Assembly (NCBI GenBank): GCA_018692925.1
Contig: JABHLH010000002.1
Coordinates: forward strand, 38,576-102,575
Direction: 5' to 3'
DNA from: an archaeon
GTDB lineage: Archaea > Nanobdellota > Nanobdellia > SCGC-AAA011-G17 > GW2011-AR17
Length of the DNA stretch: 64,000 nucleotides
Positions 2,930-22,704 of this stretch are shown here, piece by piece. How positions within the stretch are numbered: the first letter of the stretch is position 1; each line of letters opens with the position of its first letter. Below the pieces are notes generated by a model. That model did no database searches. It was not told the origin of the DNA and saw only the letters and a list, made by a program, of their open reading frames with translations. Position numbers and translations under genes: made by a program.

Positions 2930-4326
2930 TATAAACTCTTAAAGAATTTCCCAATCTTATTTGGCCATAACTTAATTCTACTCGGTCTAAAAATTAGTAT
3001 AATTCTGAATGGTAATTTTATCAATTCAATTAAGCCTGATTTTACTGCAACATCAAATTTATTTTCTATTCTCCAAGATTTGAAACCAAAGTAGATGAAC
3101 AATACAATTAACAGATAACAAATATATTTTATTGTACTTTTAGTTCCATTTGAATCTAACTCATATTTAGAAACTTCTGCACTTGTATACACAGGTAAAT
3201 TAACACTAAATTCTTCTTCATATTCTTCATTATAAGAATCCTTGTAAGTAACTTTAAATTTTATTTCTGTATCATCTTCTGCATTAACAAAAATATCATA
3301 GCTTGAAGTTTCAAAATCATCACTATCTAAATTTCCTAAGTATTCTTTGTTTGCACCAATAACAACATAACTATCATCTTCTAATAATTCTATATTCATA
3401 AATTTTAATTCTGTAGGTCCTACATTACTAACAGAAACAACAATTTCTCCTTTTCCACCTTCTTGGAAAGTATCAAAATTTTCTAAATTAAATGACAAAT
3501 CTGCTTCAGCACCAATCATAATTCCAAATGTATCTTGTTTAATAAATTCTGTACCATTAGAATTTTGGTAACTAATATTCATAGGGATTTTATAAACACC
3601 TGCTTCTGCATCTTCTTCAACAATAATCTCAAAATTAAAAGTATAATCTTCTCCTGCTCCTAATAAACTTAAACTTTTTTCTTTACTTGATTTGTAAGGA
3701 ACTATTGGCACATCAATTGAATCAATTGCTAAAACAAGATCAATATTTTTAAATGCACTTGTAGCTCCATTAATTATTGTAATATCTAGATCTGCAATTT
3801 TACCCGGAACTAATGTCTCAGGTTCACTAACAATACTATCTACATTTAGTGTAGCTTCAATTTCTTGTACATTAATATCTAAATAAGGAGTATAAACTCC
3901 ATTAGGATCATCTTCACTTGTATAAGTAAATCTTAATTCATTATCTCCTGCTGGCGCATCATCTGCAACTCTAACAACAAACTTTTTTATTACTTGTTCA
4001 CCTGGACCTAAATCTCCAACATCCCAAACAGCATCTTCTCCTTCTTTTAATTCAAATGGATAAGCTTCTAAAAATTCTAGCTCTATATTATTAACATCAT
4101 CTTGACCGACAATAGAAGTTGAACTTGACTCTTCAGTTTCAACAGCCATCCACAAATCAAAATATTCTCCTGGTGCAACTGGTGCTGGTGTATATTTTAA
4201 TGTAATTAATTGAACATCAATTATATTTTGTTTACTTGTATCAATCGTAACCGAACTGGTACCTGCATTCACAATACTCATTGTTAACAATATGACCAAA
4301 AATATTAATATTATTCCTCTTTTCAT
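2929..4326 (-). CDS. Large secreted protein with C-terminal membrane anchor, cotranscribed with the ABC exporter
   Basis: 465 aa with an N-terminal signal peptide (ILIFLVILLTMSIVNAGTSS), an acidic beta-rich body and a C-terminal TM (YICYLLIVLFIYFGF). Shares start/stop overlaps with its neighbours. Confidence 0.55.
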   Translation of the reverse strand: MKRGIILIFLVILLTMSIVNAGTSSVTIDTSKQNIIDVQLITLKYTPAPVAPGEYFDLWMAVETEESSSTSIVGQDDVNNIELEFLEAYPFELKEGEDAVWDVGDLGPGEQVIKKFVVRVADDAPAGDNELRFTYTSEDDPNGVYTPYLDINVQEIEATLNVDSIVSEPETLVPGKIADLDITIINGATSAFKNIDLVLAIDSIDVPIVPYKSSKEKSLSLLGAGEDYTFNFEIIVEEDAEAGVYKIPMNISYQNSNGTEFIKQDTFGIMIGAEADLSFNLENFDTFQEGGKGEIVVSVSNVGPTELKFMNIELLEDDSYVVIGANKEYLGNLDSDDFETSSYDIFVNAEDDTEIKFKVTYKDSYNEEYEEEFSVNLPVYTSAEVSKYELDSNGTKSTIKYICYLLIVLFIYFGFKSWRIENKFDVAVKSGLIELIKLPFRIILIFRPSRIKLWPNKIGKFFKSL

Positions 4327-5003
4327 TTTACCACCAGTCCATCTTTTAATTCAATAATTCTTTCAGCTTTTTTAGCTATATAATCATCATGTGTTACGAT
4401 TATTAAAGTTTTCCCTTCTTTTTTGTGCAACTCTTGTAATAAAGCTAAAATCTGTTCTCCAGTTTTTGTATCTAAATTACCTGTTGGTTCATCAGCTAAA
4501 ATAACTTCTGGATCATTTGCTAAAGATCTTGCAATAGCAACTCTTTGTCTTTCTCCTCCACTTAACTCTGAAGGTTTATGATCTAATCTATGGTCTAAAC
4601 CAACTTTTCTTAAAAGTATTTCAGCTCTTTTTTTTCTCTCTTCAGGCTCATAACCTTGAAAGATCATTGGAACCATAACATTTTCAACAGTTGTTAAACT
4701 CGGAATCAAATTAAAAGTTTGAAAAATAAAACCAATTTTCTTTCCTCTTATTCTTGCAAGTTCACCTTCATCTAAATTTGCAATATTTTTCCCATCTAAA
4801 TAGATTTTACCTTTTGTTGGGACATCTAAACAACCAACCATATTCAAACATGTACTTTTACCACTTCCACTCTTACCAATAATAGAAACAAACTCTCTTT
4901 CTTTTATATCAATATTAATCCCTCTAATTGCTGGAACTTCAACTTCTCCTAACTTATATATTTTCCAAGCATCCTGAACTCTAATCACACTCTTCTTTGA
5001 CAT
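4323..5003 (-). CDS. ABC transporter ATP-binding protein, MacB/LolD-type
   Basis: Walker A GKSGSGKST, ABC signature LSGGERQRVAIAR and Walker B ILADEPTGNLD. Confidence 0.9.
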   Translation of the reverse strand: MSKKSVIRVQDAWKIYKLGEVEVPAIRGINIDIKEREFVSIIGKSGSGKSTCLNMVGCLDVPTKGKIYLDGKNIANLDEGELARIRGKKIGFIFQTFNLIPSLTTVENVMVPMIFQGYEPEERKKRAEILLRKVGLDHRLDHKPSELSGGERQRVAIARSLANDPEVILADEPTGNLDTKTGEQILALLQELHKKEGKTLIIVTHDDYIAKKAERIIELKDGLVVK

Positions 5004-5646: not shown

Positions 5647-6849
5647 TTATTTTTTAATTTTTCTTTCAAGCACTTTTATTCTTTTCTTCAATTCAATCAT
5701 TTTTAATTCTCTATTTTCAGATAACTTTGAAAATCTCTCTAATTGTATTGTTCTTTTTTTACTTTTTTCTTTAGCCTTATTCATTTCGGATATAGCTTCT
5801 TCTGTACCAATCCCTAATTCGTGTTTAGAACTACCTGTTCTAAGTATTGCCAATTTCAAACTAGCTAATATTCTATCTAAAGAATCTATTAAATTATTAA
5901 TTTCAAAAATCTTACTTTCTTTTATTTGAATCTCAAAATTACCTTTACTAATCTCATCAACACTTTCTGTCAAATCTTTAATTGGTTTTGAAATATATCT
6001 TGAAACAAAAAAGCCCATAAAAGAAATTAAAAAGATAATAAGTAAAAGATTCTTAATGCTTGAATATATTACTCCTTTTTTAGTTTCTCCTAATGCTTCA
6101 GCTTCATCAATTTTAACAACTAGTCCTACATCTAATACTTCAATATACTTTGTAATTGCAATAACTTCTTCTCCTCTATAATCATTAATATCATATATAG
6201 TCTTTTCAACACCTGAAACTGCTTCCGCCATTGGGAGATGAGATGCTTCAATCATTTCATTAGCTTCAAATCTTCTTTGAGTAAAAAAAACTATATCTCC
6301 ATCACTATCTTGATAAGCTAATAAACTTTCTCCAGTTTCTCCAAGTCCTGTCTGGTCTAAAATAATACTATCAAAAACACCTAGTCTTGCTTCTGTAACA
6401 ACAAATCCTTCCTTAAATGGTGTAGCAAGTAATAGTGTCTCTTCTTCAAATATTTTAGAAGTATATGCTAGAATTATTGTTTCTTCTTCCTTTAAAAAAT
6501 CATTAATATTTATGATTTCATTAATAAATGTCTCATCAGATGAAGTAATGATCATACCTTCTGAATCAACTGTATATAAAATCTCAAAATCTTCTTGTAT
6601 CTTAATTATTTCTTTTAATTCATCATTACTAAGATTTTCGTGTGTTGCTGTTATTTGAATATTTTCAACATTCTGTTTTACAAAATCTTCTACAATATCT
6701 TCCATTAATTGCGATCTTGATTCTAAATGCATATTAATTTTCTGTTCAAGAAGGTTAGATGTGTCAAAATAATTATTTGACAACATTATAAAACCTGCTA
6801 ATATTCCAACTAGGATAAAACTAAAAATAATGATTTTAGATAATTTCAT
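5647..6849 (-). CDS. Membrane sensor protein: cache-like extracytoplasmic domain plus HAMP, no output domain
   Basis: TM1, a roughly 240-aa periplasmic domain, TM2, a HAMP-like segment (ISKPIKDLTESVDEISKGNFEIQI) and a coiled-coil tail. Confidence 0.6.
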   Translation of the reverse strand: MKLSKIIIFSFILVGILAGFIMLSNNYFDTSNLLEQKINMHLESRSQLMEDIVEDFVKQNVENIQITATHENLSNDELKEIIKIQEDFEILYTVDSEGMIITSSDETFINEIININDFLKEEETIILAYTSKIFEEETLLLATPFKEGFVVTEARLGVFDSIILDQTGLGETGESLLAYQDSDGDIVFFTQRRFEANEMIEASHLPMAEAVSGVEKTIYDINDYRGEEVIAITKYIEVLDVGLVVKIDEAEALGETKKGVIYSSIKNLLLIIFLISFMGFFVSRYISKPIKDLTESVDEISKGNFEIQIKESKIFEINNLIDSLDRILASLKLAILRTGSSKHELGIGTEEAISEMNKAKEKSKKRTIQLERFSKLSENRELKMIELKKRIKVLERKIKK

Positions 6850-6869: not shown

Positions 6870-7271
6870 CTATTTAACATATTTCTCAAATAAAGGGAAT
6901 AATATTGTTTCTTCAGCACTAACTCTTTTTGATACAGCCTTAATTATTTCTTCTGTTTCATTAATAAATTTTTTATAATCAGTTAAAATTATATTCTTAT
7001 CCTGATATTTATCAAAGAATTTTAAAACCACTTTAGATACTTCATTCATTTCTTCTGAAAATTTATCCCCTGCTTCTTTTGCTTTATTATTTTCACAATC
7101 TTTTAAAGCCGGATATAACATTCGATCTTCTAACTTTAAATGTTCTATTAACAATTCTTTTAAACTAGATATTTCTTCAACTATTTTTTCATTAGATTTC
7201 AAAATTTTAATTTTTTCAAAATATCTCATAATTTCTACATGTTCTTCTTTTAATTCTTTAATTAAATCCAT
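6870..7271 (-). CDS. Hemerythrin-like (HHE cation-binding) protein
   Basis: 133 aa with repeated H/E-containing helices (EEHVEIMRYFE..., EHLKLEDRMLYPAL) typical of hemerythrin domains. Confidence 0.55.
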   Translation of the reverse strand: MDLIKELKEEHVEIMRYFEKIKILKSNEKIVEEISSLKELLIEHLKLEDRMLYPALKDCENNKAKEAGDKFSEEMNEVSKVVLKFFDKYQDKNIILTDYKKFINETEEIIKAVSKRVSAEETILFPLFEKYVK

Positions 7272-8058
7272 TTTTTTTCCTCTTAATTTTTTTCTTTGAT
7301 AAAAGCGAATAAGGGTTCATTAAACCTATTTGTATTATAGCCTTATAGATTAAATAAAATGATATAATCTTAAAAAAATGACCTACAAGATTTGATAATC
7401 CGAAAACGCTTACATAAAATGTAAATGCTAACTCTGCAAATATTGTAAAGATTATTGAGCTTATTATTAAATAAAAGATAATCTTATCAAATTTCTCTTT
7501 ATATTCCCATAAAAAAACAATAGATCCAATTAAAATAATAGAAATTATATATTCACTTATAATTTTAAATTGTGTTAATCCACTATCTACAATAAATGCA
7601 TCTGGAAATATTCTTAGATAAAATATGCTTACAAAAATAAAACTTGTAATAATAAAATAAATCAAAGAAGTCAACTTTGGTTTTAATTCCCTTATTATAA
7701 AAATAGGTGCTACTAAAAAAGAGAGAGCTTGTAGATAACGTGCAGCTATCCATAACTGGGTTGGTAAATTAGCATCAAATCCTGAAAATATATTTATCCC
7801 TTGATATGCTAATAAATGAACAAAATCTATACTTGCAATAAAAACTAAACTTATTCCTAAAAATAACAAATAATCATTATCAACAAAAAACCTTGAATTT
7901 CATGCAATCATAAATATTCCTACTGCAATAACAATACTAAATATTTCTGCTACACTATGGAATAATGCATAATTTTCATAAAAACTTGTTAACCAAATAC
8001 CTACTAAAGCTAAAATAAAAATAACTATTTCTAATTTGCTAAATATTTTTTCTTTCAT
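7258..8058 (-). pseudogene. Polytopic membrane sensor-domain protein interrupted by an in-frame TGA
   Basis: The ATG at 8058 opens a frame (MKEKIFSKLEIVIFILALVGIWLTSFYENYALFHSVAEIFSIVIAVGIFMIA) that hits TGA at 7902..7900. The same frame continues (NSRFFVDNDYLLFLGISLVF...) into the 203-aa ORF 7258..7869, which has no ATG start. Confidence 0.4.
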
Positions 8059-10905: not shown

Positions 10906-10989
10906 GCGCGAGTGCCGGAGTGGTCAAACGGGCTGGACTCAAAATCCAGTGGCTTAGTGCCTACGCAGGTTCGAAACCTGTCTCGTGCA
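10906..10989 (+). tRNA. tRNA-Leu (anticodon CAA), class II with long variable arm
   Basis: Acceptor GCGCGAG/CTCGTGC, anticodon stem CTGGA/TCCAG with loop CTCAAAA, long variable arm, T-arm GCAGG-TTCGAAA-CCTGT, discriminator A. CCA not encoded. Confidence 0.85.
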
Positions 10990-10998
10990 CTTTATTTT

Positions 10999-16709: not shown

Positions 16710-16920
16710 TTTTTACAACTTCCAAAATCTCTTCTTCAGAGACTTTCTCTTTATTGAAAGCCTCTAAAGTTCTTCCGTATTTACTTTCTAAACTAGACTT
16801 CATACAAAAAGTTTTTCTATCAAAAAACTCAGCCTTTTTTCCTTTATTCCATTGTGTCACAGGTCTATGATATCCTACAACTCTACTATATACTTCACAT
16901 TGTTTTCCACATTTACTCAT
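16696..16920 (-). CDS. NrdD C-terminal glycyl-radical domain as a separate small ORF
   Basis: MSKCGKQCEVYSRVVGYHRPVTQWNKGKK carries the RVxGY glycyl-radical motif. The ATG at 16920 is preceded by the Shine-Dalgarno sequence AAAGGAGGTGA. Overlaps the nrdD stop by 8 nt. Confidence 0.65.
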   Translation of the reverse strand: MSKCGKQCEVYSRVVGYHRPVTQWNKGKKAEFFDRKTFCMKSSLESKYGRTLEAFNKEKVSEEEILEVVKNVEF

Positions 16921-18892
16921 TCTGCTCACCTCCTTTTGTGCTGACTACAGCTTCATATGGGCACTCATGATGTTCTCCTGCAATGTATCCATGCTCTGGA
17001 CAAATACTAAATGTTGGAGTTATTGTATAGTATGGTATTCTATATGTGTGTGCAATTCTTTTTACTAATTTTTTACACGCTTCAATACTATCTATTTTTT
17101 CTCCAATAAAACAGTGGAACACAGTTCCTCCTGTATACTTACATTGCAATTCTTCTTGGCTATCTAAAGCTTCAAAAATATCATCTGTTGCATTCACTGG
17201 TAACTGTGAACTATTTGTATAATATGGTTCTTCTGTTCCAGCTGTAATTATATTTGGATATTTCATCTTATCAATTCTTGCCAATCTATAACTAGTTCCT
17301 TCTCCAGGTGTAGCTTCTAAATTATAGATGTGTCCTGAATCTTCTTGGTATTGTTTTAATCTTGATCTCATAAAATCTAAAATCTCAATTGCAAAATCTC
17401 TTCCTTCATCATCAAGCATATCTTTCTTCAAGAAATTCAAACAACATTCATTCATTCCAATTAATCCAATTGTTGAAAAATGATGGTCTAAATTTTCTAG
17501 ATATCTTTTTGTGTAAGGCAACAATCCATATTCCATATATCTTGTAACAACCTTTCTTTTAATTTCTAAAGAATTTTGAGCCATATCCATTAAGATTTTT
17601 AATCTTCTAAAGAATTCGTCTCTATCTTTACTAACAAATCCTAATCTTGGTAGATTAATTGTAGCAACTCCAATAGAACCTGTATTTTCTCCAGAACCAA
17701 ACAATCCTCCAGTTTTACTTCTAAGTTCTCTTACATCAAGTTGTAATCTACAACACATACTTCTAACATCTGTTGGTTTCAACTCACTGTTAACAAAATT
17801 TTGGAAATAAGGGATACCATATTTTGAAGTCATTTCAAATAATATATTTGCATTATCACTATCCCAATCAAAATCTTTTGTAATGTTATAAGTTGGTATA
17901 GGGAAAGTAAATATTCTTCCATCAGCGTCTCCTTCCATCATACATTCCATGAAAGCTTTATTGATCATATCCATTTCCTTTTGATAATCTTTATACTTGT
18001 TTTCTTGTCTCTTTCCACCAATGATTACTTTTTCTTCTGCCAAATCTTCAGGTACTGTCCAATCAAATGTAAAATTTATGAAAGGTGTTTGTGTTCCCCA
18101 TCTGCTTGGTGTAGCAATATTAAATAGTAATCTTTGCATTTGTTGTTTAACTTCTTTGTAAGTCATATTATCTACTCTTACATATGGAGCTAGATAAGTA
18201 TCTACAGAGGACAAAGCTTGAGCTCCTGCCCATTCATTTTGCATTGTTCCTAAGAAATTAACCATTTGTCCAATTACAGTATCAAAATGCTTTGGTTGTT
18301 TTGTTTGTAACTTTCCATAAACTCCACCAAAACCTTCTTCTAACAATTGTCTAAGTGACCAACCTGCACAGTAACCTGAGAACATACTCAAATCATGTAA
18401 GTGGAAATCCCCATTTGAATGTGCATTTTTAATTTCTGCAGGATAAATATTATTCAACCAATAATTAGCAGTAATTTTTCCAGAGATGTACAAAATCAAA
18501 CCTCCAAGAGAAAATCCTACATTACTATTTTCATTTACTCTCCAATCAATTTGATCAAGGTATTCTTTCATTGTACCTTCAACATCTAATAATACTTTTT
18601 TACTCTCTCTTTCTCTCCTTCTATTCTCTCTATAAATGATAAAAGATTTTGCTGCTGCATGATCATTGTCTTTTATTAGAACTTCTTCTATTGAATCTTG
18701 AATTTCTTCTACTGAAGGAATTTGATAAGGATTTTTTTCTTCAACCATTCTAGCAACTTTTTGTGCTAGTTCTTGTGCTTTATCTTTACTACCAATTCCA
18801 GTTGCTTTCATTGCACTGAATATTGCTTCTGCTATTCTCTCTTTATTGAAAAGAATAATACTTCCATCTCTTTTTTTTACATGTGTTACCAT
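16913..18892 (-). CDS. nrdD: Anaerobic ribonucleoside-triphosphate reductase (class III) catalytic polypeptide, lacking the glycyl-radical motif
   Basis: 659 aa with an N-terminal ATP-cone and the class III core. Ends ...CPEHGYIAGEHHECPYEAVVSTKGGEQNE before the RVxGY motif. Confidence 0.9.
   Translation of the reverse strand: MVTHVKKRDGSIILFNKERIAEAIFSAMKATGIGSKDKAQELAQKVARMVEEKNPYQIPSVEEIQDSIEEVLIKDNDHAAAKSFIIYRENRRRERESKKVLLDVEGTMKEYLDQIDWRVNENSNVGFSLGGLILYISGKITANYWLNNIYPAEIKNAHSNGDFHLHDLSMFSGYCAGWSLRQLLEEGFGGVYGKLQTKQPKHFDTVIGQMVNFLGTMQNEWAGAQALSSVDTYLAPYVRVDNMTYKEVKQQMQRLLFNIATPSRWGTQTPFINFTFDWTVPEDLAEEKVIIGGKRQENKYKDYQKEMDMINKAFMECMMEGDADGRIFTFPIPTYNITKDFDWDSDNANILFEMTSKYGIPYFQNFVNSELKPTDVRSMCCRLQLDVRELRSKTGGLFGSGENTGSIGVATINLPRLGFVSKDRDEFFRRLKILMDMAQNSLEIKRKVVTRYMEYGLLPYTKRYLENLDHHFSTIGLIGMNECCLNFLKKDMLDDEGRDFAIEILDFMRSRLKQYQEDSGHIYNLEATPGEGTSYRLARIDKMKYPNIITAGTEEPYYTNSSQLPVNATDDIFEALDSQEELQCKYTGGTVFHCFIGEKIDSIEACKKLVKRIAHTYRIPYYTITPTFSICPEHGYIAGEHHECPYEAVVSTKGGEQNE
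16926..16933 (-). promoter_or_regulatory. Shine-Dalgarno sequence (GGAGGTGA) for the glycyl-radical small ORF
   Basis: Minus strand reads aaaaGGAGGTGAgcagaATG. A comparable AGAGGTGA precedes the GTG start of the class II RNR gene. Confidence 0.5.
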
Positions 18893-18902
18893 TTTTACTC
18901 CC

Positions 18903-19349
18903 CTAAATTATTTTTTGTATTTCGGCCTCAAGTTCTTGTATATCTCCAATATCTTTGTGTATTGAAGCATACCTGATATAGGCAATTTTATCAGTTTTTT
19001 TCAACAAACTCAAAACCCATTTCCCCAAAACTTTACTTTCAACTTCATTTGCTTTATAATTTCTAACTTTTCTCTGTAATCCATCAACCATATTATCAAT
19101 TGCTTCCATTGTCACTGGTCTTTTTTCAAAAGATCTTACGAATCCTTCTTTAATTTTTACTCTGCAAAAAGGTTCTTTTCTGCCATCTCTTTTTAAAACA
19201 TAAACTGGAAATTCTTCAATTCTTTCATATGTTGTAAACCTTTTATTACAGTCCAAACACTCTCTTCTCCTTCTTATTGATTTGTTTTCTTCAGTATTCC
19301 TTTTATCTAATACTTTCAGATCTGGACTTGCACAATATGGACATTTCAT
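18903..19349 (-). CDS. nrdR: Transcriptional repressor NrdR (zinc ribbon plus ATP-cone)
   Basis: MKCPYCASPDLKVLDKR...RRRECLDCNKRFTTYE. 148 aa. Confidence 0.85.
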   Translation of the reverse strand: MKCPYCASPDLKVLDKRNTEENKSIRRRRECLDCNKRFTTYERIEEFPVYVLKRDGRKEPFCRVKIKEGFVRSFEKRPVTMEAIDNMVDGLQRKVRNYKANEVESKVLGKWVLSLLKKTDKIAYIRYASIHKDIGDIQELEAEIQKII

Positions 19350-20218: not shown

Positions 20219-20292
20219 AGCCTCAGCCGTGATTTGAACACGGGACCTCTTGCTTACCAAGCAAGTGCTATACCGAGCTAAGCCACTGAGGC
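20219..20292 (-). tRNA. tRNA-Thr (anticodon GGU)
   Basis: Reverse complement folds as acceptor GCCTCAG/CTGAGGC, anticodon stem CTTGC/GCAAG with loop TTGGTAA, T-arm CCGTG-TTCAAAT-CACGG, discriminator U. Confidence 0.85.
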
Positions 20293-21005: not shown

Positions 21006-21174
21006 TGCGAGGGAAGGGATTTGAACCCTCGAACTCACTAAGAGACAGGATATCTTACGATTTGATTACATCCATATGTAATCTATCTCAAAGAGACTTT
21101 GGTCTTAAGTTTCGCAAACCTACAGTAACTTTCTGTAAGTTCCCTGCGCATTTGACCACTTTGCTACCCCCGCA
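21006..21174 (-). tRNA. Intron-containing tRNA with a roughly 95-100-nt intron; isotype unresolved, class II-like long variable arm
   Basis: 5' half GCGGGGG-TA-GCA-AAGTGGTCAAA-TGC-G-CAGGG. 3' half ...TCCTG-TCTCTTAGTGAGTTC-GAGGG-TTCAAAT-CCCTT-CCCTCGC-A. A 7-bp acceptor and a canonical T-arm are present. The intron contains a 7-bp hairpin (CTTACAG/CTGTAGG). Confidence 0.6.
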
Positions 21175-21199
21175 TTGTATTAGAATTTATTTGTTTTAT

Positions 21200-21931
21200 T
21201 TAAAAAACTTTTGTTTCATTTATAATTTGATATCTTTCTTTTAATTTTGTATTTGGTGGACAATAACCTTTTATTTTATAGATTTGCCATTTGGTAAGAT
21301 GTTTAGAACTTTTAAAACCAATTTCTTTTATGAATCTTTCAATATCTTTTTTTCTTTGAATCATTATTGAATGCACTGCATTTTTATCTTTTTTTCCTTT
21401 GTAAGAAGGTTTTTGATAAATATTATATCCTAATTCTTCAAGCATAAATCTCACTCCTTTTATTATTTTTTTGGAAGTCATTCCTAATTTTATTCTAGGA
21501 CGATTATGTTTTCTATTTTCTATTTTCACAGAATAATTTTTATTGAAATATATTGAACCATCAGTATCAAAAATACCTCTTAAAAAAAACTTCCATAATC
21601 TTTTATTTTTTAGGATACAATCAGGAATTTCATGATCTAATTTAACTCCTGATTTTATACCTAATTGCTCAAAAAAAGAAACAATTTTTTCATTAAAAAC
21701 ATATATCCCATATGTTCCATTTTTTTCATAATTTTTTGCAATAATTTCTTTTCCTAAAATGGGTTTAAAGATATTTGAATTATATATAGGTAAGACATGG
21801 TTATCATAATATTCTCTCTCTTCAGTTATATCTCCATTTATTGCATATTCCTGATATTTTGTAGTTTTACTAATACAACCATCACCTAAATGAATTCCAA
21901 TTATTTCGGCTAATTCTTCAGATATTTCCAT
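21200..21931 (-). CDS. LAGLIDADG homing endonuclease, double-motif single-chain type
   Basis: Motif 1 LAEIIGIHLGDGCIS and motif 2 WKFFLRGIFDTDGSIYF. 243 aa, free-standing, directly upstream of the intron-containing tRNA. Confidence 0.8.
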   Translation of the reverse strand: MEISEELAEIIGIHLGDGCISKTTKYQEYAINGDITEEREYYDNHVLPIYNSNIFKPILGKEIIAKNYEKNGTYGIYVFNEKIVSFFEQLGIKSGVKLDHEIPDCILKNKRLWKFFLRGIFDTDGSIYFNKNYSVKIENRKHNRPRIKLGMTSKKIIKGVRFMLEELGYNIYQKPSYKGKKDKNAVHSIMIQRKKDIERFIKEIGFKSSKHLTKWQIYKIKGYCPPNTKLKERYQIINETKVF

Positions 21932-22021
21932 ATCTAATAACTCATTTCAAACTTAATAACTGCTTGTTAAGAATTTCTGAAAATCTTTCAATTTTTCTGA
22001 AAACTTTCCATAAAATCCTCT

Positions 22022-22489
22022 CTAATAAAGAGTATTAAACAAAGAATCAATACTTGTAGGATATCTTGTAGAATTTAAAGAATTTTGATAAGAACCATAA
22101 CTTTGAACATCTTCAAAAAGTGAACCAACCATCTCTAAGTATAAAGGTCTTACTTCTGCTGGGAATGCTGAAGAAGATTTTAATAATCTTGTTATAATTT
22201 CTAAAGATTTGTGTGCTGCTATTCCTGCACTTATATCTTCTGGCTTATCTAATAAGTGCGAACTATAAACTTCGTATTGTTGTAATAAAGTCTCAATGTC
22301 TTCTACCAATTCTGTACCAAGGGCTTCATCAATTTTTATACACATGGGTTTTGTACTAGTTTCAAACCTTTCCCATCTTCTTCTTTTATATTCCAGAACT
22401 ATATCTTCCTCAGATGTATTTGCAGCTAAACCTAATTTTTCAGCATATATTTTTGTAACTTCATTAACTACCATAAAATAGATTTTCAA
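22022..22489 (-). CDS. Hypothetical protein
   Basis: 155-aa ORF with no recognisable motifs. Confidence 0.35.
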   Translation of the reverse strand: MKIYFMVVNEVTKIYAEKLGLAANTSEEDIVLEYKRRRWERFETSTKPMCIKIDEALGTELVEDIETLLQQYEVYSSHLLDKPEDISAGIAAHKSLEIITRLLKSSSAFPAEVRPLYLEMVGSLFEDVQSYGSYQNSLNSTRYPTSIDSLFNTLY

Positions 22490-22704
22490 CTCATCATATA
22501 TAAATTTAACTCAAAAAGAAAAATCAGTCCAAGCCAAGGGGAGATCGACTTGAACCTTCTTAAGCATAAAGGTAGGGAGGTGTTGCATCCTCTTTTTTCA
22601 CCTTAGAGAATATTAGCCCATTTTCATTTATAAAAGAACAGAACACTATATACATACAGTCTTTCCATAAAGCTTATAAATAATTAGTTTTAGTCGTCAT
22701 AGTA

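Follow-up and report, generated by a model that had tools for sequence, protein, structure and literature searches.

A free-standing LAGLIDADG endonuclease gene beside an intron-containing tRNA-Leu(UAA) gene of a DPANN archaeon: a candidate selfish cassette anchored to a tRNA gene

A stretch of 64,000 nucleotides (nt) from an archaeon of the Nanobdellota (contig JABHLH010000002.1, positions 38,576 to 102,575 of the forward strand, assembly GCA_018692925.1), referred to here as the window, has a G+C content of 28.9% and encodes an intact, free-standing, single-chain LAGLIDADG endonuclease directly upstream of its tRNA-Leu(UAA) gene. It is proposed, with a probability of roughly 0.6, that this endonuclease gene is a mobile, selfish cassette that is anchored to tRNA-Leu(UAA) and would be transferred by homing. 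The proposal is made because syntenic sites without the gene exist, because the gene is present sporadically, because its placement around the tRNA varies between relatives and because some relatives have flanking repeats. The open reading frame (ORF) of 243 amino acids (21200-21931) and the tRNA gene (21006-21173) are both encoded on the minus strand, and the gap between the endonuclease stop codon and G1 of the tRNA is exactly 26 nt (21174-21199), as given in an earlier sequence-only reading of this DNA. That reading had also recognized the two LAGLIDADG motifs and a flanking tRNA for threonine, which is tRNA-Thr(GGT) at 20219-20292 on the minus strand, and it had placed the endonuclease outside of the tRNA intron. 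This placement stands, as the ORF ends upstream of the tRNA and neither of the two introns, of 32 nt and 52 nt, contains an ORF.

The ORF can be assigned with high confidence as a single-chain LAGLIDADG homing endonuclease. The Pfam family LAGLIDADG_3 matches it with E = 4.9e-13 and 49.6 bits (cutoff 22.5), and both motifs are found within one polypeptide, IIGIHLGDGCIS at residues 10-21 (21869-21904, minus strand) with the predicted catalytic residue Asp17 and LRGIFDTDGSIYF at residues 117-129 (21545-21583, minus strand) with the predicted catalytic residue Asp124. An AlphaFold2 model that was calculated with a 33-sequence alignment as input reached a mean predicted local distance difference test score (pLDDT) of 95.8 and a predicted template modeling score (pTM) of 0.92, and it shows the tandem alpha-beta-beta-alpha-beta-beta-alpha order of helices and strands expected for LAGLIDADG enzymes. 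In this model Asp17 is located at the C-terminal end of helix 5-17 and Asp124 at the end of helix 110-123, and an extra C-terminal two-helix segment (residues ~205-241) is seen that is also conserved in the alignment. A Foldseek search against the PDB returned I-Tsp061I, the bI3 maturase, E-DreI, I-DmoI, I-SceI and PI-SceI at a probability of 1.00, with I-Tsp061I, the bI3 maturase as second-best match and I-DmoI among the top matches (E = 7.5e-9 to 6.4e-8), and it matched WhiA as well. A sequence search of the PDB with the same protein gave nothing relevant, and the structural kin are visible by fold search only.

Across the 33 aligned sequences, in which the relatives share 34-66% identity with the window protein and are all of full length, the residues G16, D17 and G18 of the first motif and R118, G119, F121, D122, T123, D124 and G125 of the second motif are invariant. 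Both acidic residues, on which the sequence-only reading had made its interpretation depend, are present and conserved; the profile search and the structure prediction of the ORF had been proposed in that reading. Since the motifs are invariant and the ORFs full length over this range of identities, the protein is, as judged by its conservation, intact and under constraint and not a decaying remnant, and it would act as a functional endonuclease, its nuclease activity being predicted from motifs and model. The suggestion of a degenerating intron-homing element had to be given up, as the ORF is intact and strongly conserved and as its relatives have a dedicated promoter motif. Database searches identified 182 homologues at E <= 1e-3 from DPANN archaea, most of the 120 homologues listed having a length of ~240 amino acids, and 504 representative clusters (50% clustering) match at E <= 1e-10. 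The closest homologues are encoded in assemblies of Nanoarchaeota, Woesearchaeota and Pacearchaeota, which marks the host as a DPANN archaeon.

The relatives of the window enzyme were surveyed in 80 loci from archaeal assemblies, with one genome per species (individual loci are given by L numbers throughout). In 56 of the 80 loci, automated detection placed the start of a same-strand tRNA at ~-60 to +250 nt relative to the point where the endonuclease match ends. If automated detection, alignment to reference tRNAs and manual reading of the flanks are taken together, the endonuclease gene touches a tRNA gene in ~72 of the 78 assessable loci. These include downstream tRNAs on the same strand that were added manually for L007, L065 and L079, tRNAs immediately upstream of the endonuclease gene in four loci (L014, L015, L016, L028) and adjacent tRNAs on the opposite strand in nine loci (L003, L012, L017, L035, L040, L045, L054, L056, L075). 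There are ~45 tRNA genes per Mb, so that chance would give fewer than one tRNA-adjoining case in 80. A scatter of the family over unrelated loci without association to tRNAs or introns, which had been named beforehand as an observation that would speak against the interpretation, was not seen, as the relatives lie overwhelmingly beside tRNA genes. A control set of 45 viral LAGLIDADG relatives contains no case with a tRNA within 3 kb; viral contigs were considered as a vehicle of the gene and rejected, as their LAGLIDADG proteins are distant (<=33% identity) and none is near a tRNA.

Different lineages of the endonuclease are found beside different tRNAs, namely Leu-UAA, Leu-CAA, Leu-GAG, Arg-UCG, His-GUG, Ile-GAU, Gln and Ser. 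In 49 of 51 cases the nearest-neighbor endonuclease has the same tRNA identity (0.15 expected by chance). Based on these sequence comparisons, the enzymes form a DPANN-wide family in which each lineage keeps to one tRNA species. The position relative to this tRNA is less strict: in a subclade consisting of L012, L014, L015, L018 and L098 (56-58% identity) the gene is always beside tRNA-Leu(UAA), yet it is located upstream, downstream or divergently, which indicates that the anchor is the tRNA gene and not a single insertion point.

Comparison of syntenic loci revealed that the gene is present at some and absent from others. The window, L081 and the P0004 contig have in common a divergent HTH_45 gene and a gene for a membrane protein of ~220 amino acids upstream of the endonuclease gene, and the endonuclease of L081, which is encoded on a contig of 841 kb, is 66% identical to that of the window. 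L144 and L146 are empty sites, with the same HTH_45 and DUF7521-like upstream neighbors and the same tRNA and with no endonuclease gene; the tRNA-Leu(UAA) gene of L144 has the two-intron layout of the window. L144 and the carrier locus L001 are colinear, with 74% identity in the left flank and 90% across the tRNA, and L001 has ~915 nt beyond L144, the endonuclease gene included, between an upstream T-run terminator and the TATA box of the tRNA. A metagenome scan by the 3'-exon sequence of the tRNA yielded 80 loci, all of them tRNA-Leu(UAA), of which 60 could be assessed for the endonuclease, and three of these 60 carry it just upstream. One of them, L098, encodes an enzyme with 55% identity to that of the window, the other two, L095 and L152, contain very divergent, partly degenerate LAGLIDADG ORFs at the same site. 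The idea of a small mobile cassette, which was contained in the sequence-only reading, is supported by these empty sites and by the small number of carriers. A large or integrase-type element at the tRNA was also considered and was rejected, as the insert has ~0.9 kb, codes for the LAGLIDADG protein only, is located at the 5' side of the tRNA and has both flanks syntenic with empty sites. L081 encodes a second LAGLIDADG ORF (6915-7865) of 316 amino acids, which has an N-terminal extension, is 29% identical to the window enzyme and overlaps the 5' end of a tRNA-Thr(GGT) gene (7851-7968). The tRNA-Thr(GGT) gene of the window has no adjoining endonuclease gene, and a tblastn search of the window found no remnant of one.

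At the junction of the two genes, the endonuclease stop codon (21200-21202) falls inside a TATA-like element of the tRNA, TTTTTTAAATAAAA, which was read from the sequence at -34 to -21 of the tRNA (21194-21207, minus strand) and is a putative promoter. A comparable AAAnnTTTATAA element is found ~30-45 nt before the tRNA +1 position in L001, L002 and L006-L011, and in L001, L002 and L007 it likewise contains the stop codon. In several lineages the ORF runs on without a stop codon until it ends within the tRNA 5' region, and its conserved C-terminal residues RKDILK are specified by a TATA-like AAAGATATTTTAAAG located ~30-45 nt upstream of the tRNA +1 position. Upstream of the endonuclease ORF the relatives have the conserved promoter motif GACAnGGCA..GCGCGCAG..TATA. 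This motif is absent from the intergenic region 5' of the window ORF (21932-22021, minus strand), in which the sequence TTATTAAG, ~25-30 nt before the ATG, is presumed to be a promoter of the endonuclease gene's own. Duplications at the borders of the gene were found in several relatives: L007, L011, L034 and L060 have 14-16 nt of promoter twice, once ahead of the start codon and once where the ORF ends, and a 20-27-nt copy of the tRNA 3' end follows the endonuclease ORF in L015 and L028. For the window cassette no flanking tRNA-derived repeat was found. In L015 (~3670-3900, 4756-4782) and L028 the arrangement is an intact tRNA-Leu, then the endonuclease gene, then the 20-27-nt copy of the tRNA 3' end together with a T-run.

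The tRNA-Leu(UAA) gene of the window comprises 168 nt, with G1 at 21173 and the discriminator A at 21006, and it differs from what had been described before. Where the sequence-only reading had seen a single, unusually long intron of ~100 nt, the 91 nt between the anticodon-stem halves consist of two introns of ordinary size, 32 nt and 52 nt, around a micro-exon of 7 nt. On the minus strand, exon 1 (21143-21173, tRNA positions 1-30) with the end ...GCGCAGG is followed by intron 1 (21111-21142) at position 30/31, by the micro-exon ACTTAAG (21104-21110, positions 31-37) containing the anticodon UAA, by intron 2 (21052-21103) at the canonical position 37/38 and by exon 3 (21006-21051, positions 38-73) with the long variable arm and the T arm. 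Removal of both introns in silico results in an 85-mer, which is called as tRNA-Leu(taa) by ARAGORN. In relatives the intron-free gene reads ...GCGCAGGA CTTAAGA TCCTG..., compared to ...GCGCAGG / 32-nt intron / ACTTAAG / 52-nt intron / ATCCTG... in the window. The window exons align with the intron-free tRNA-Leu(UAA) genes of L002, L010 and L088; after splicing, the anticodon arm matches those of L002 and L088 exactly, and the remaining exons are close in the alignment. D arm and long variable arm resemble those of the tRNA-Leu(CAA) of the window (10906-10990).

Both introns have the geometry of bulge-helix-bulge introns. Intron 1 is flanked by a central helix of 4 base pairs (bp), CGCA (25-28)/TGCG, with the 3-nt bulges GG|G and AA|A, and contains an inner hairpin of 9 bp, AACTTACAG/CTGTAGGTT; intron 2 has the central 4-bp helix CTTA (32-35)/TAAG with the 3-nt bulges AG|A and AT|A. 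In relatives, in which introns were mapped by gap-tolerant alignment to intron-free reference tRNAs, the geometry of intron 1 was found in 15 loci and that of intron 2 in 14 loci. In L011 and L013 the helix of intron 1 has become GGCA/TGCC by a compensatory change, in L001 and L112 it contains G-U pairs, and the inner hairpins differ in sequence between the 15 loci but remain paired in most of them. The introns are thus best described as ordinary archaeal bulge-helix-bulge introns, for which removal by the host splicing endonuclease is predicted. Standard tools do not recover this gene readily: ARAGORN misses it in default mode, and the Rfam tRNA model did not recover the full gene at the gathering or the E-value threshold and matched the 3' part only, with 19.6 bits. 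The intron mode of ARAGORN proposed Gly(tcc) with an 88-nt intron, which was rejected in favor of the two-intron tRNA-Leu(UAA). Models with a single intron were dropped after comparison with relatives, as no variant yields a loop with U33, and a brute-force enumeration of bulge-helix-bulge-like splice events combined with ARAGORN was abandoned because of many spurious anticodons.

Introns in tRNA-Leu(UAA) are common with and without the cassette. The 80 metagenomic alleles have zero to five introns at at least seven positions, carriers and non-carriers alike, and position 37/38 is occupied by an intron in most of them. An increased disruption of tRNA genes in DPANN lineages was noted earlier (PMC5829648). 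Four short introns are present in L081 (~5770-5990) and L083 (~1292-1511), five in L095 (818-1070) and L152 (5995-6244), the sites in these four loci being located after the acceptor stem, in the D loop or stem, at 30/31, at 37/38 and in the T stem. Among the metagenomic alleles T-loop inserts of 75-123 nt occur. The anticodon arm of L085, L099, L124, L125, L127, L129, L136, L142, L159, L160 and L163 contains caggATTCAATGAATGCGAAACTCAGAATGCGAGacttaag, which resembles two short introns, tandem or nested, that are located at 30/31 and both end in TGCGA(A/G), and which suggests an intron duplication or the insertion of an intron within an intron.

Judging from the relatives, the mobile unit would comprise ~0.9 kb, consisting of its own promoter and the ORF, and it would sit just 5' of tRNA-Leu(UAA) with the mature tRNA sequence left untouched. 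The enzyme is supposed to cut its cognate tRNA gene, or the immediate boundary of it, in genomes that are free of the cassette, and repair of the double-strand break from the copy of the carrier would carry the adjacent endonuclease gene across, similar to the 'intronless homing' of phages. A tRNA gene is conserved and essential and would in this way be a durable target and landing mark, while the cassette would be harmless, being located outside of the mature tRNA with the tRNA promoter preserved or supplied.

Several points weigh against this proposal of a tRNA-anchored selfish cassette. The comparison of empty and filled sites puts the insertion between the upstream terminator and the TATA box of the tRNA, ~35-60 nt away from the tRNA, which means that a classical site that is split by the insertion would be poorly conserved promoter DNA and not the tRNA. 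The proposal does not account for the way in which the tRNA of the carrier itself would escape cleavage, as the intron-free carriers L002 and L010 exist. At 64-66% protein identity, the synteny that the window shares with L081 and the P0004 contig would also fit long vertical inheritance with repeated loss. Furthermore, the tRNA identities of intron-rich genes were mostly assigned manually or by alignment.

The escape of the carrier would be accounted for by collaborative homing or intron-based immunity, in which the enzyme cuts the intron-free tRNA-Leu(UAA) gene at 30/31 or 37/38, the introns shield the carrier and both spread together, but this is considered unlikely. The closest relatives of the window enzyme (L001, L081, L083 and L098, 55-66% identity) do all have the introns at 30/31 and 37/38, but the same pair is shared by non-carriers such as L144 and L103 (plus a third), and introns are present in 51 of the 57 non-carrier alleles. 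The alleles richest in introns, with four to five of them (L081, L083, L095, L152), are carriers; however, carriers have on average 2.25 introns (n = 16) and non-carriers 1.49 (n = 57), with p = 0.075 in a Mann-Whitney test on samples that are phylogenetically non-independent, and carriers free of introns are found not only in L002 and L010 but also at His, Arg, Gln and Leu-CAA loci. Two further observations are in line with a shielding role: the tRNA-Thr(GGT) of L081, with an endonuclease, has two introns while that of the window, without an endonuclease, has none, and in L014-L016, in which the endonuclease is downstream of the tRNA, introns occur in the T arm adjoining the duplication boundary. 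Because the counts do not differ significantly, because there are carriers without introns and because there are non-carriers with them, a coupling of endonuclease and introns, as the sequence-only reading had suggested it, is not supported. In a broader form of this thought, the DPANN archaea would harbor a diversified guild of tRNA-gene-specific endonucleases with one lineage for each tRNA species, and the extraordinary intron load of their tRNAs, with up to five introns and at least seven positions in tRNA-Leu(UAA), would have arisen from an arms race, every new intron destroying a recognition site of an endonuclease in the tRNA gene; this is put forward as a speculative and rather doubtful extension.

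Still less probable is that the gene is a vertically inherited relic, i.e., that it was inserted beside each tRNA in ancient times, has no current mobility and became patchy by repeated loss only. Such a relic would account for the gene order that the window has in common with L081 and the P0004 contig, and pure vertical descent would also result in concordance of endonuclease lineage and tRNA. However, a selfish endonuclease that does not home should decay, whereas motifs are invariant and ORFs full length across 34-66% identity; the placement around the same tRNA changes between upstream, downstream and divergent inside one subclade; unrelated LAGLIDADG lineages occupy the same site in L152 and L081; and the exact flanking duplications of 14-27 nt suggest recent events. 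A domesticated LAGLIDADG protein with a host role at tRNA genes, for example as transcription factor or as RNA chaperone or maturase for intron-rich pre-tRNAs, would agree with the recruitment of LAGLIDADG folds as maturases, such as bI3, and as transcription factors, WhiA having been matched as well, and with the tight coupling to the tRNA promoter, including the TATA-like AAAGATATTTTAAAG that encodes RKDILK in several subfamilies. Nevertheless, this role is very improbable, as 57 of the 60 tRNA-Leu(UAA) loci have no such protein, including syntenic loci with an identical intron layout, and many partner tRNAs are free of introns. In domesticated LAGLIDADG relatives the catalytic acidic residues are not known to be invariant, whereas both of them are invariant here.

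Some short elements and neighboring genes were observed around the cassette. In several different subfamilies the endonuclease TATA box is closely preceded by a conserved motif, (CCACTG)GACAnGGCAnAnGTGCGCGCAG or CACTGGACAnnTGCGCGC, with sites at ~4960-4990 and ~6870-6900 of L081, at ~5250-5280 of L152 and upstream of the start in L014, L017 and L054; it is absent upstream of the window endonuclease gene. It resembles the tRNA-Leu segment CTGGTCAAATGCGCAGG, which reaches from the D loop to position 30, and may represent an operator or what is left of a tRNA exon. Between the DUF7521-like gene and the endonuclease or the tRNA, a conserved short element consisting of a strong TATA box, TTTATAAATG, and a hairpin ending in a T-run is found in the window (~22525-22650, minus strand), L144 (~855-900), L146 and L081 (~4840-4950). 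The sequence (C)ACCTCCC lies close to it, in the hairpin loop in L144 and L146, while in the window it precedes the predicted terminal hairpin. This element may be a small RNA gene; a hairpin RNA at ~22525-22650 of the window was rejected as a candidate, as its folding is no better than that of shuffled sequence (z = -0.57). An ORF of 155 amino acids without a Pfam match is located between the endonuclease gene and the DUF7521-like gene (22022-22489, minus strand); it probably represents a separate insertion, as it has no counterpart at the syntenic loci examined, L081, L144, L146 and L152. Further away (16913-19349, minus strand) the window encodes an ORF of 659 amino acids resembling the anaerobic ribonucleotide reductase NrdD, preceded by an NrdR-like ORF of 148 amino acids, both judged by eye from their translations only. 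NrdR is mainly a bacterial regulator, and the NrdR-like ORF of the window comes from a DPANN archaeon.

If tRNA genes are indeed cleaved by these enzymes, the family would constitute a new natural collection of meganucleases with specificities for tRNA genes, the long-standing proposal that introns in archaeal tRNAs and split tRNA genes guard against mobile elements would become directly testable, and the frequent failure of tRNA annotation in DPANN genomes would be explained in part. If the arms-race reading was true as well, immunity to genome parasites would be a concrete selective function of the tRNA introns of archaea and, by extension, of split tRNA genes. Phages and organelles are well-known hosts of free-standing homing endonucleases, and in archaea enzymes of the LAGLIDADG type are known from inteins and from introns of rRNA genes. 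In the searchable literature on LAGLIDADG or homing endonucleases together with DPANN lineages or tRNA, a family as reported here was not described, most subscription journals being outside of reach, so that this absence is no proof; a large cellular family of tRNA-adjoining endonucleases with one lineage per tRNA species is apparently undescribed.

The closest functional resemblance exists to SegB of phage T4, a free-standing GIY-YIG endonuclease that is encoded in the phage tRNA gene cluster and takes part in intronless homing. Both are stand-alone endonucleases beside tRNA genes, with inheritance by cutting and co-conversion presumed, but the family of the window belongs to the LAGLIDADG type, resides in cellular archaea, has one lineage per tRNA species and often has an ORF that overlaps the tRNA promoter or 5' end. 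I-DmoI and I-Tsp061I are encoded within rRNA introns and cut intron-free rDNA at the insertion site; they have the same fold and size class, two motifs, acidic residues at the helix ends and an archaeal host in common with the window enzyme, whereas the latter is encoded outside of any intron and beside a tRNA, has ~16% identity to them and possesses the additional C-terminal two-helix segment. In collaborative homing, the cyanophage endonuclease F-CphI is encoded beside the group I intron of psbA, and this free-standing gene adjoining an intron-containing gene corresponds to the model of the sequence-only reading; here, in contrast, the counts show no significant coupling of endonuclease and intron presence, and the introns are protein-spliced bulge-helix-bulge introns and not ribozymes. 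In atp6 of Allomyces, a free-standing endonuclease gene of fungal mitochondria is inserted at the 3' end of the gene together with a replacement copy. L015 and L028, with their intact tRNA, endonuclease gene and 20-27-nt copy of the tRNA 3' end, are similar to this, but the host gene is a tRNA and not a protein gene, and the copy in the window is of the upstream type without duplication. Finally, bacterial group I introns in tRNA genes encode endonucleases, with LAGLIDADG enzymes in cyanobacterial tRNA-Arg(CCU) and PD-(D/E)XK enzymes in tRNA-fMet (PMC13011429). These endonucleases are located inside of self-splicing bacterial introns, whereas the window ORF is archaeal and lies outside of the tRNA; in both systems tRNA genes would serve as homing targets, and the endonuclease family follows the tRNA anticodon.

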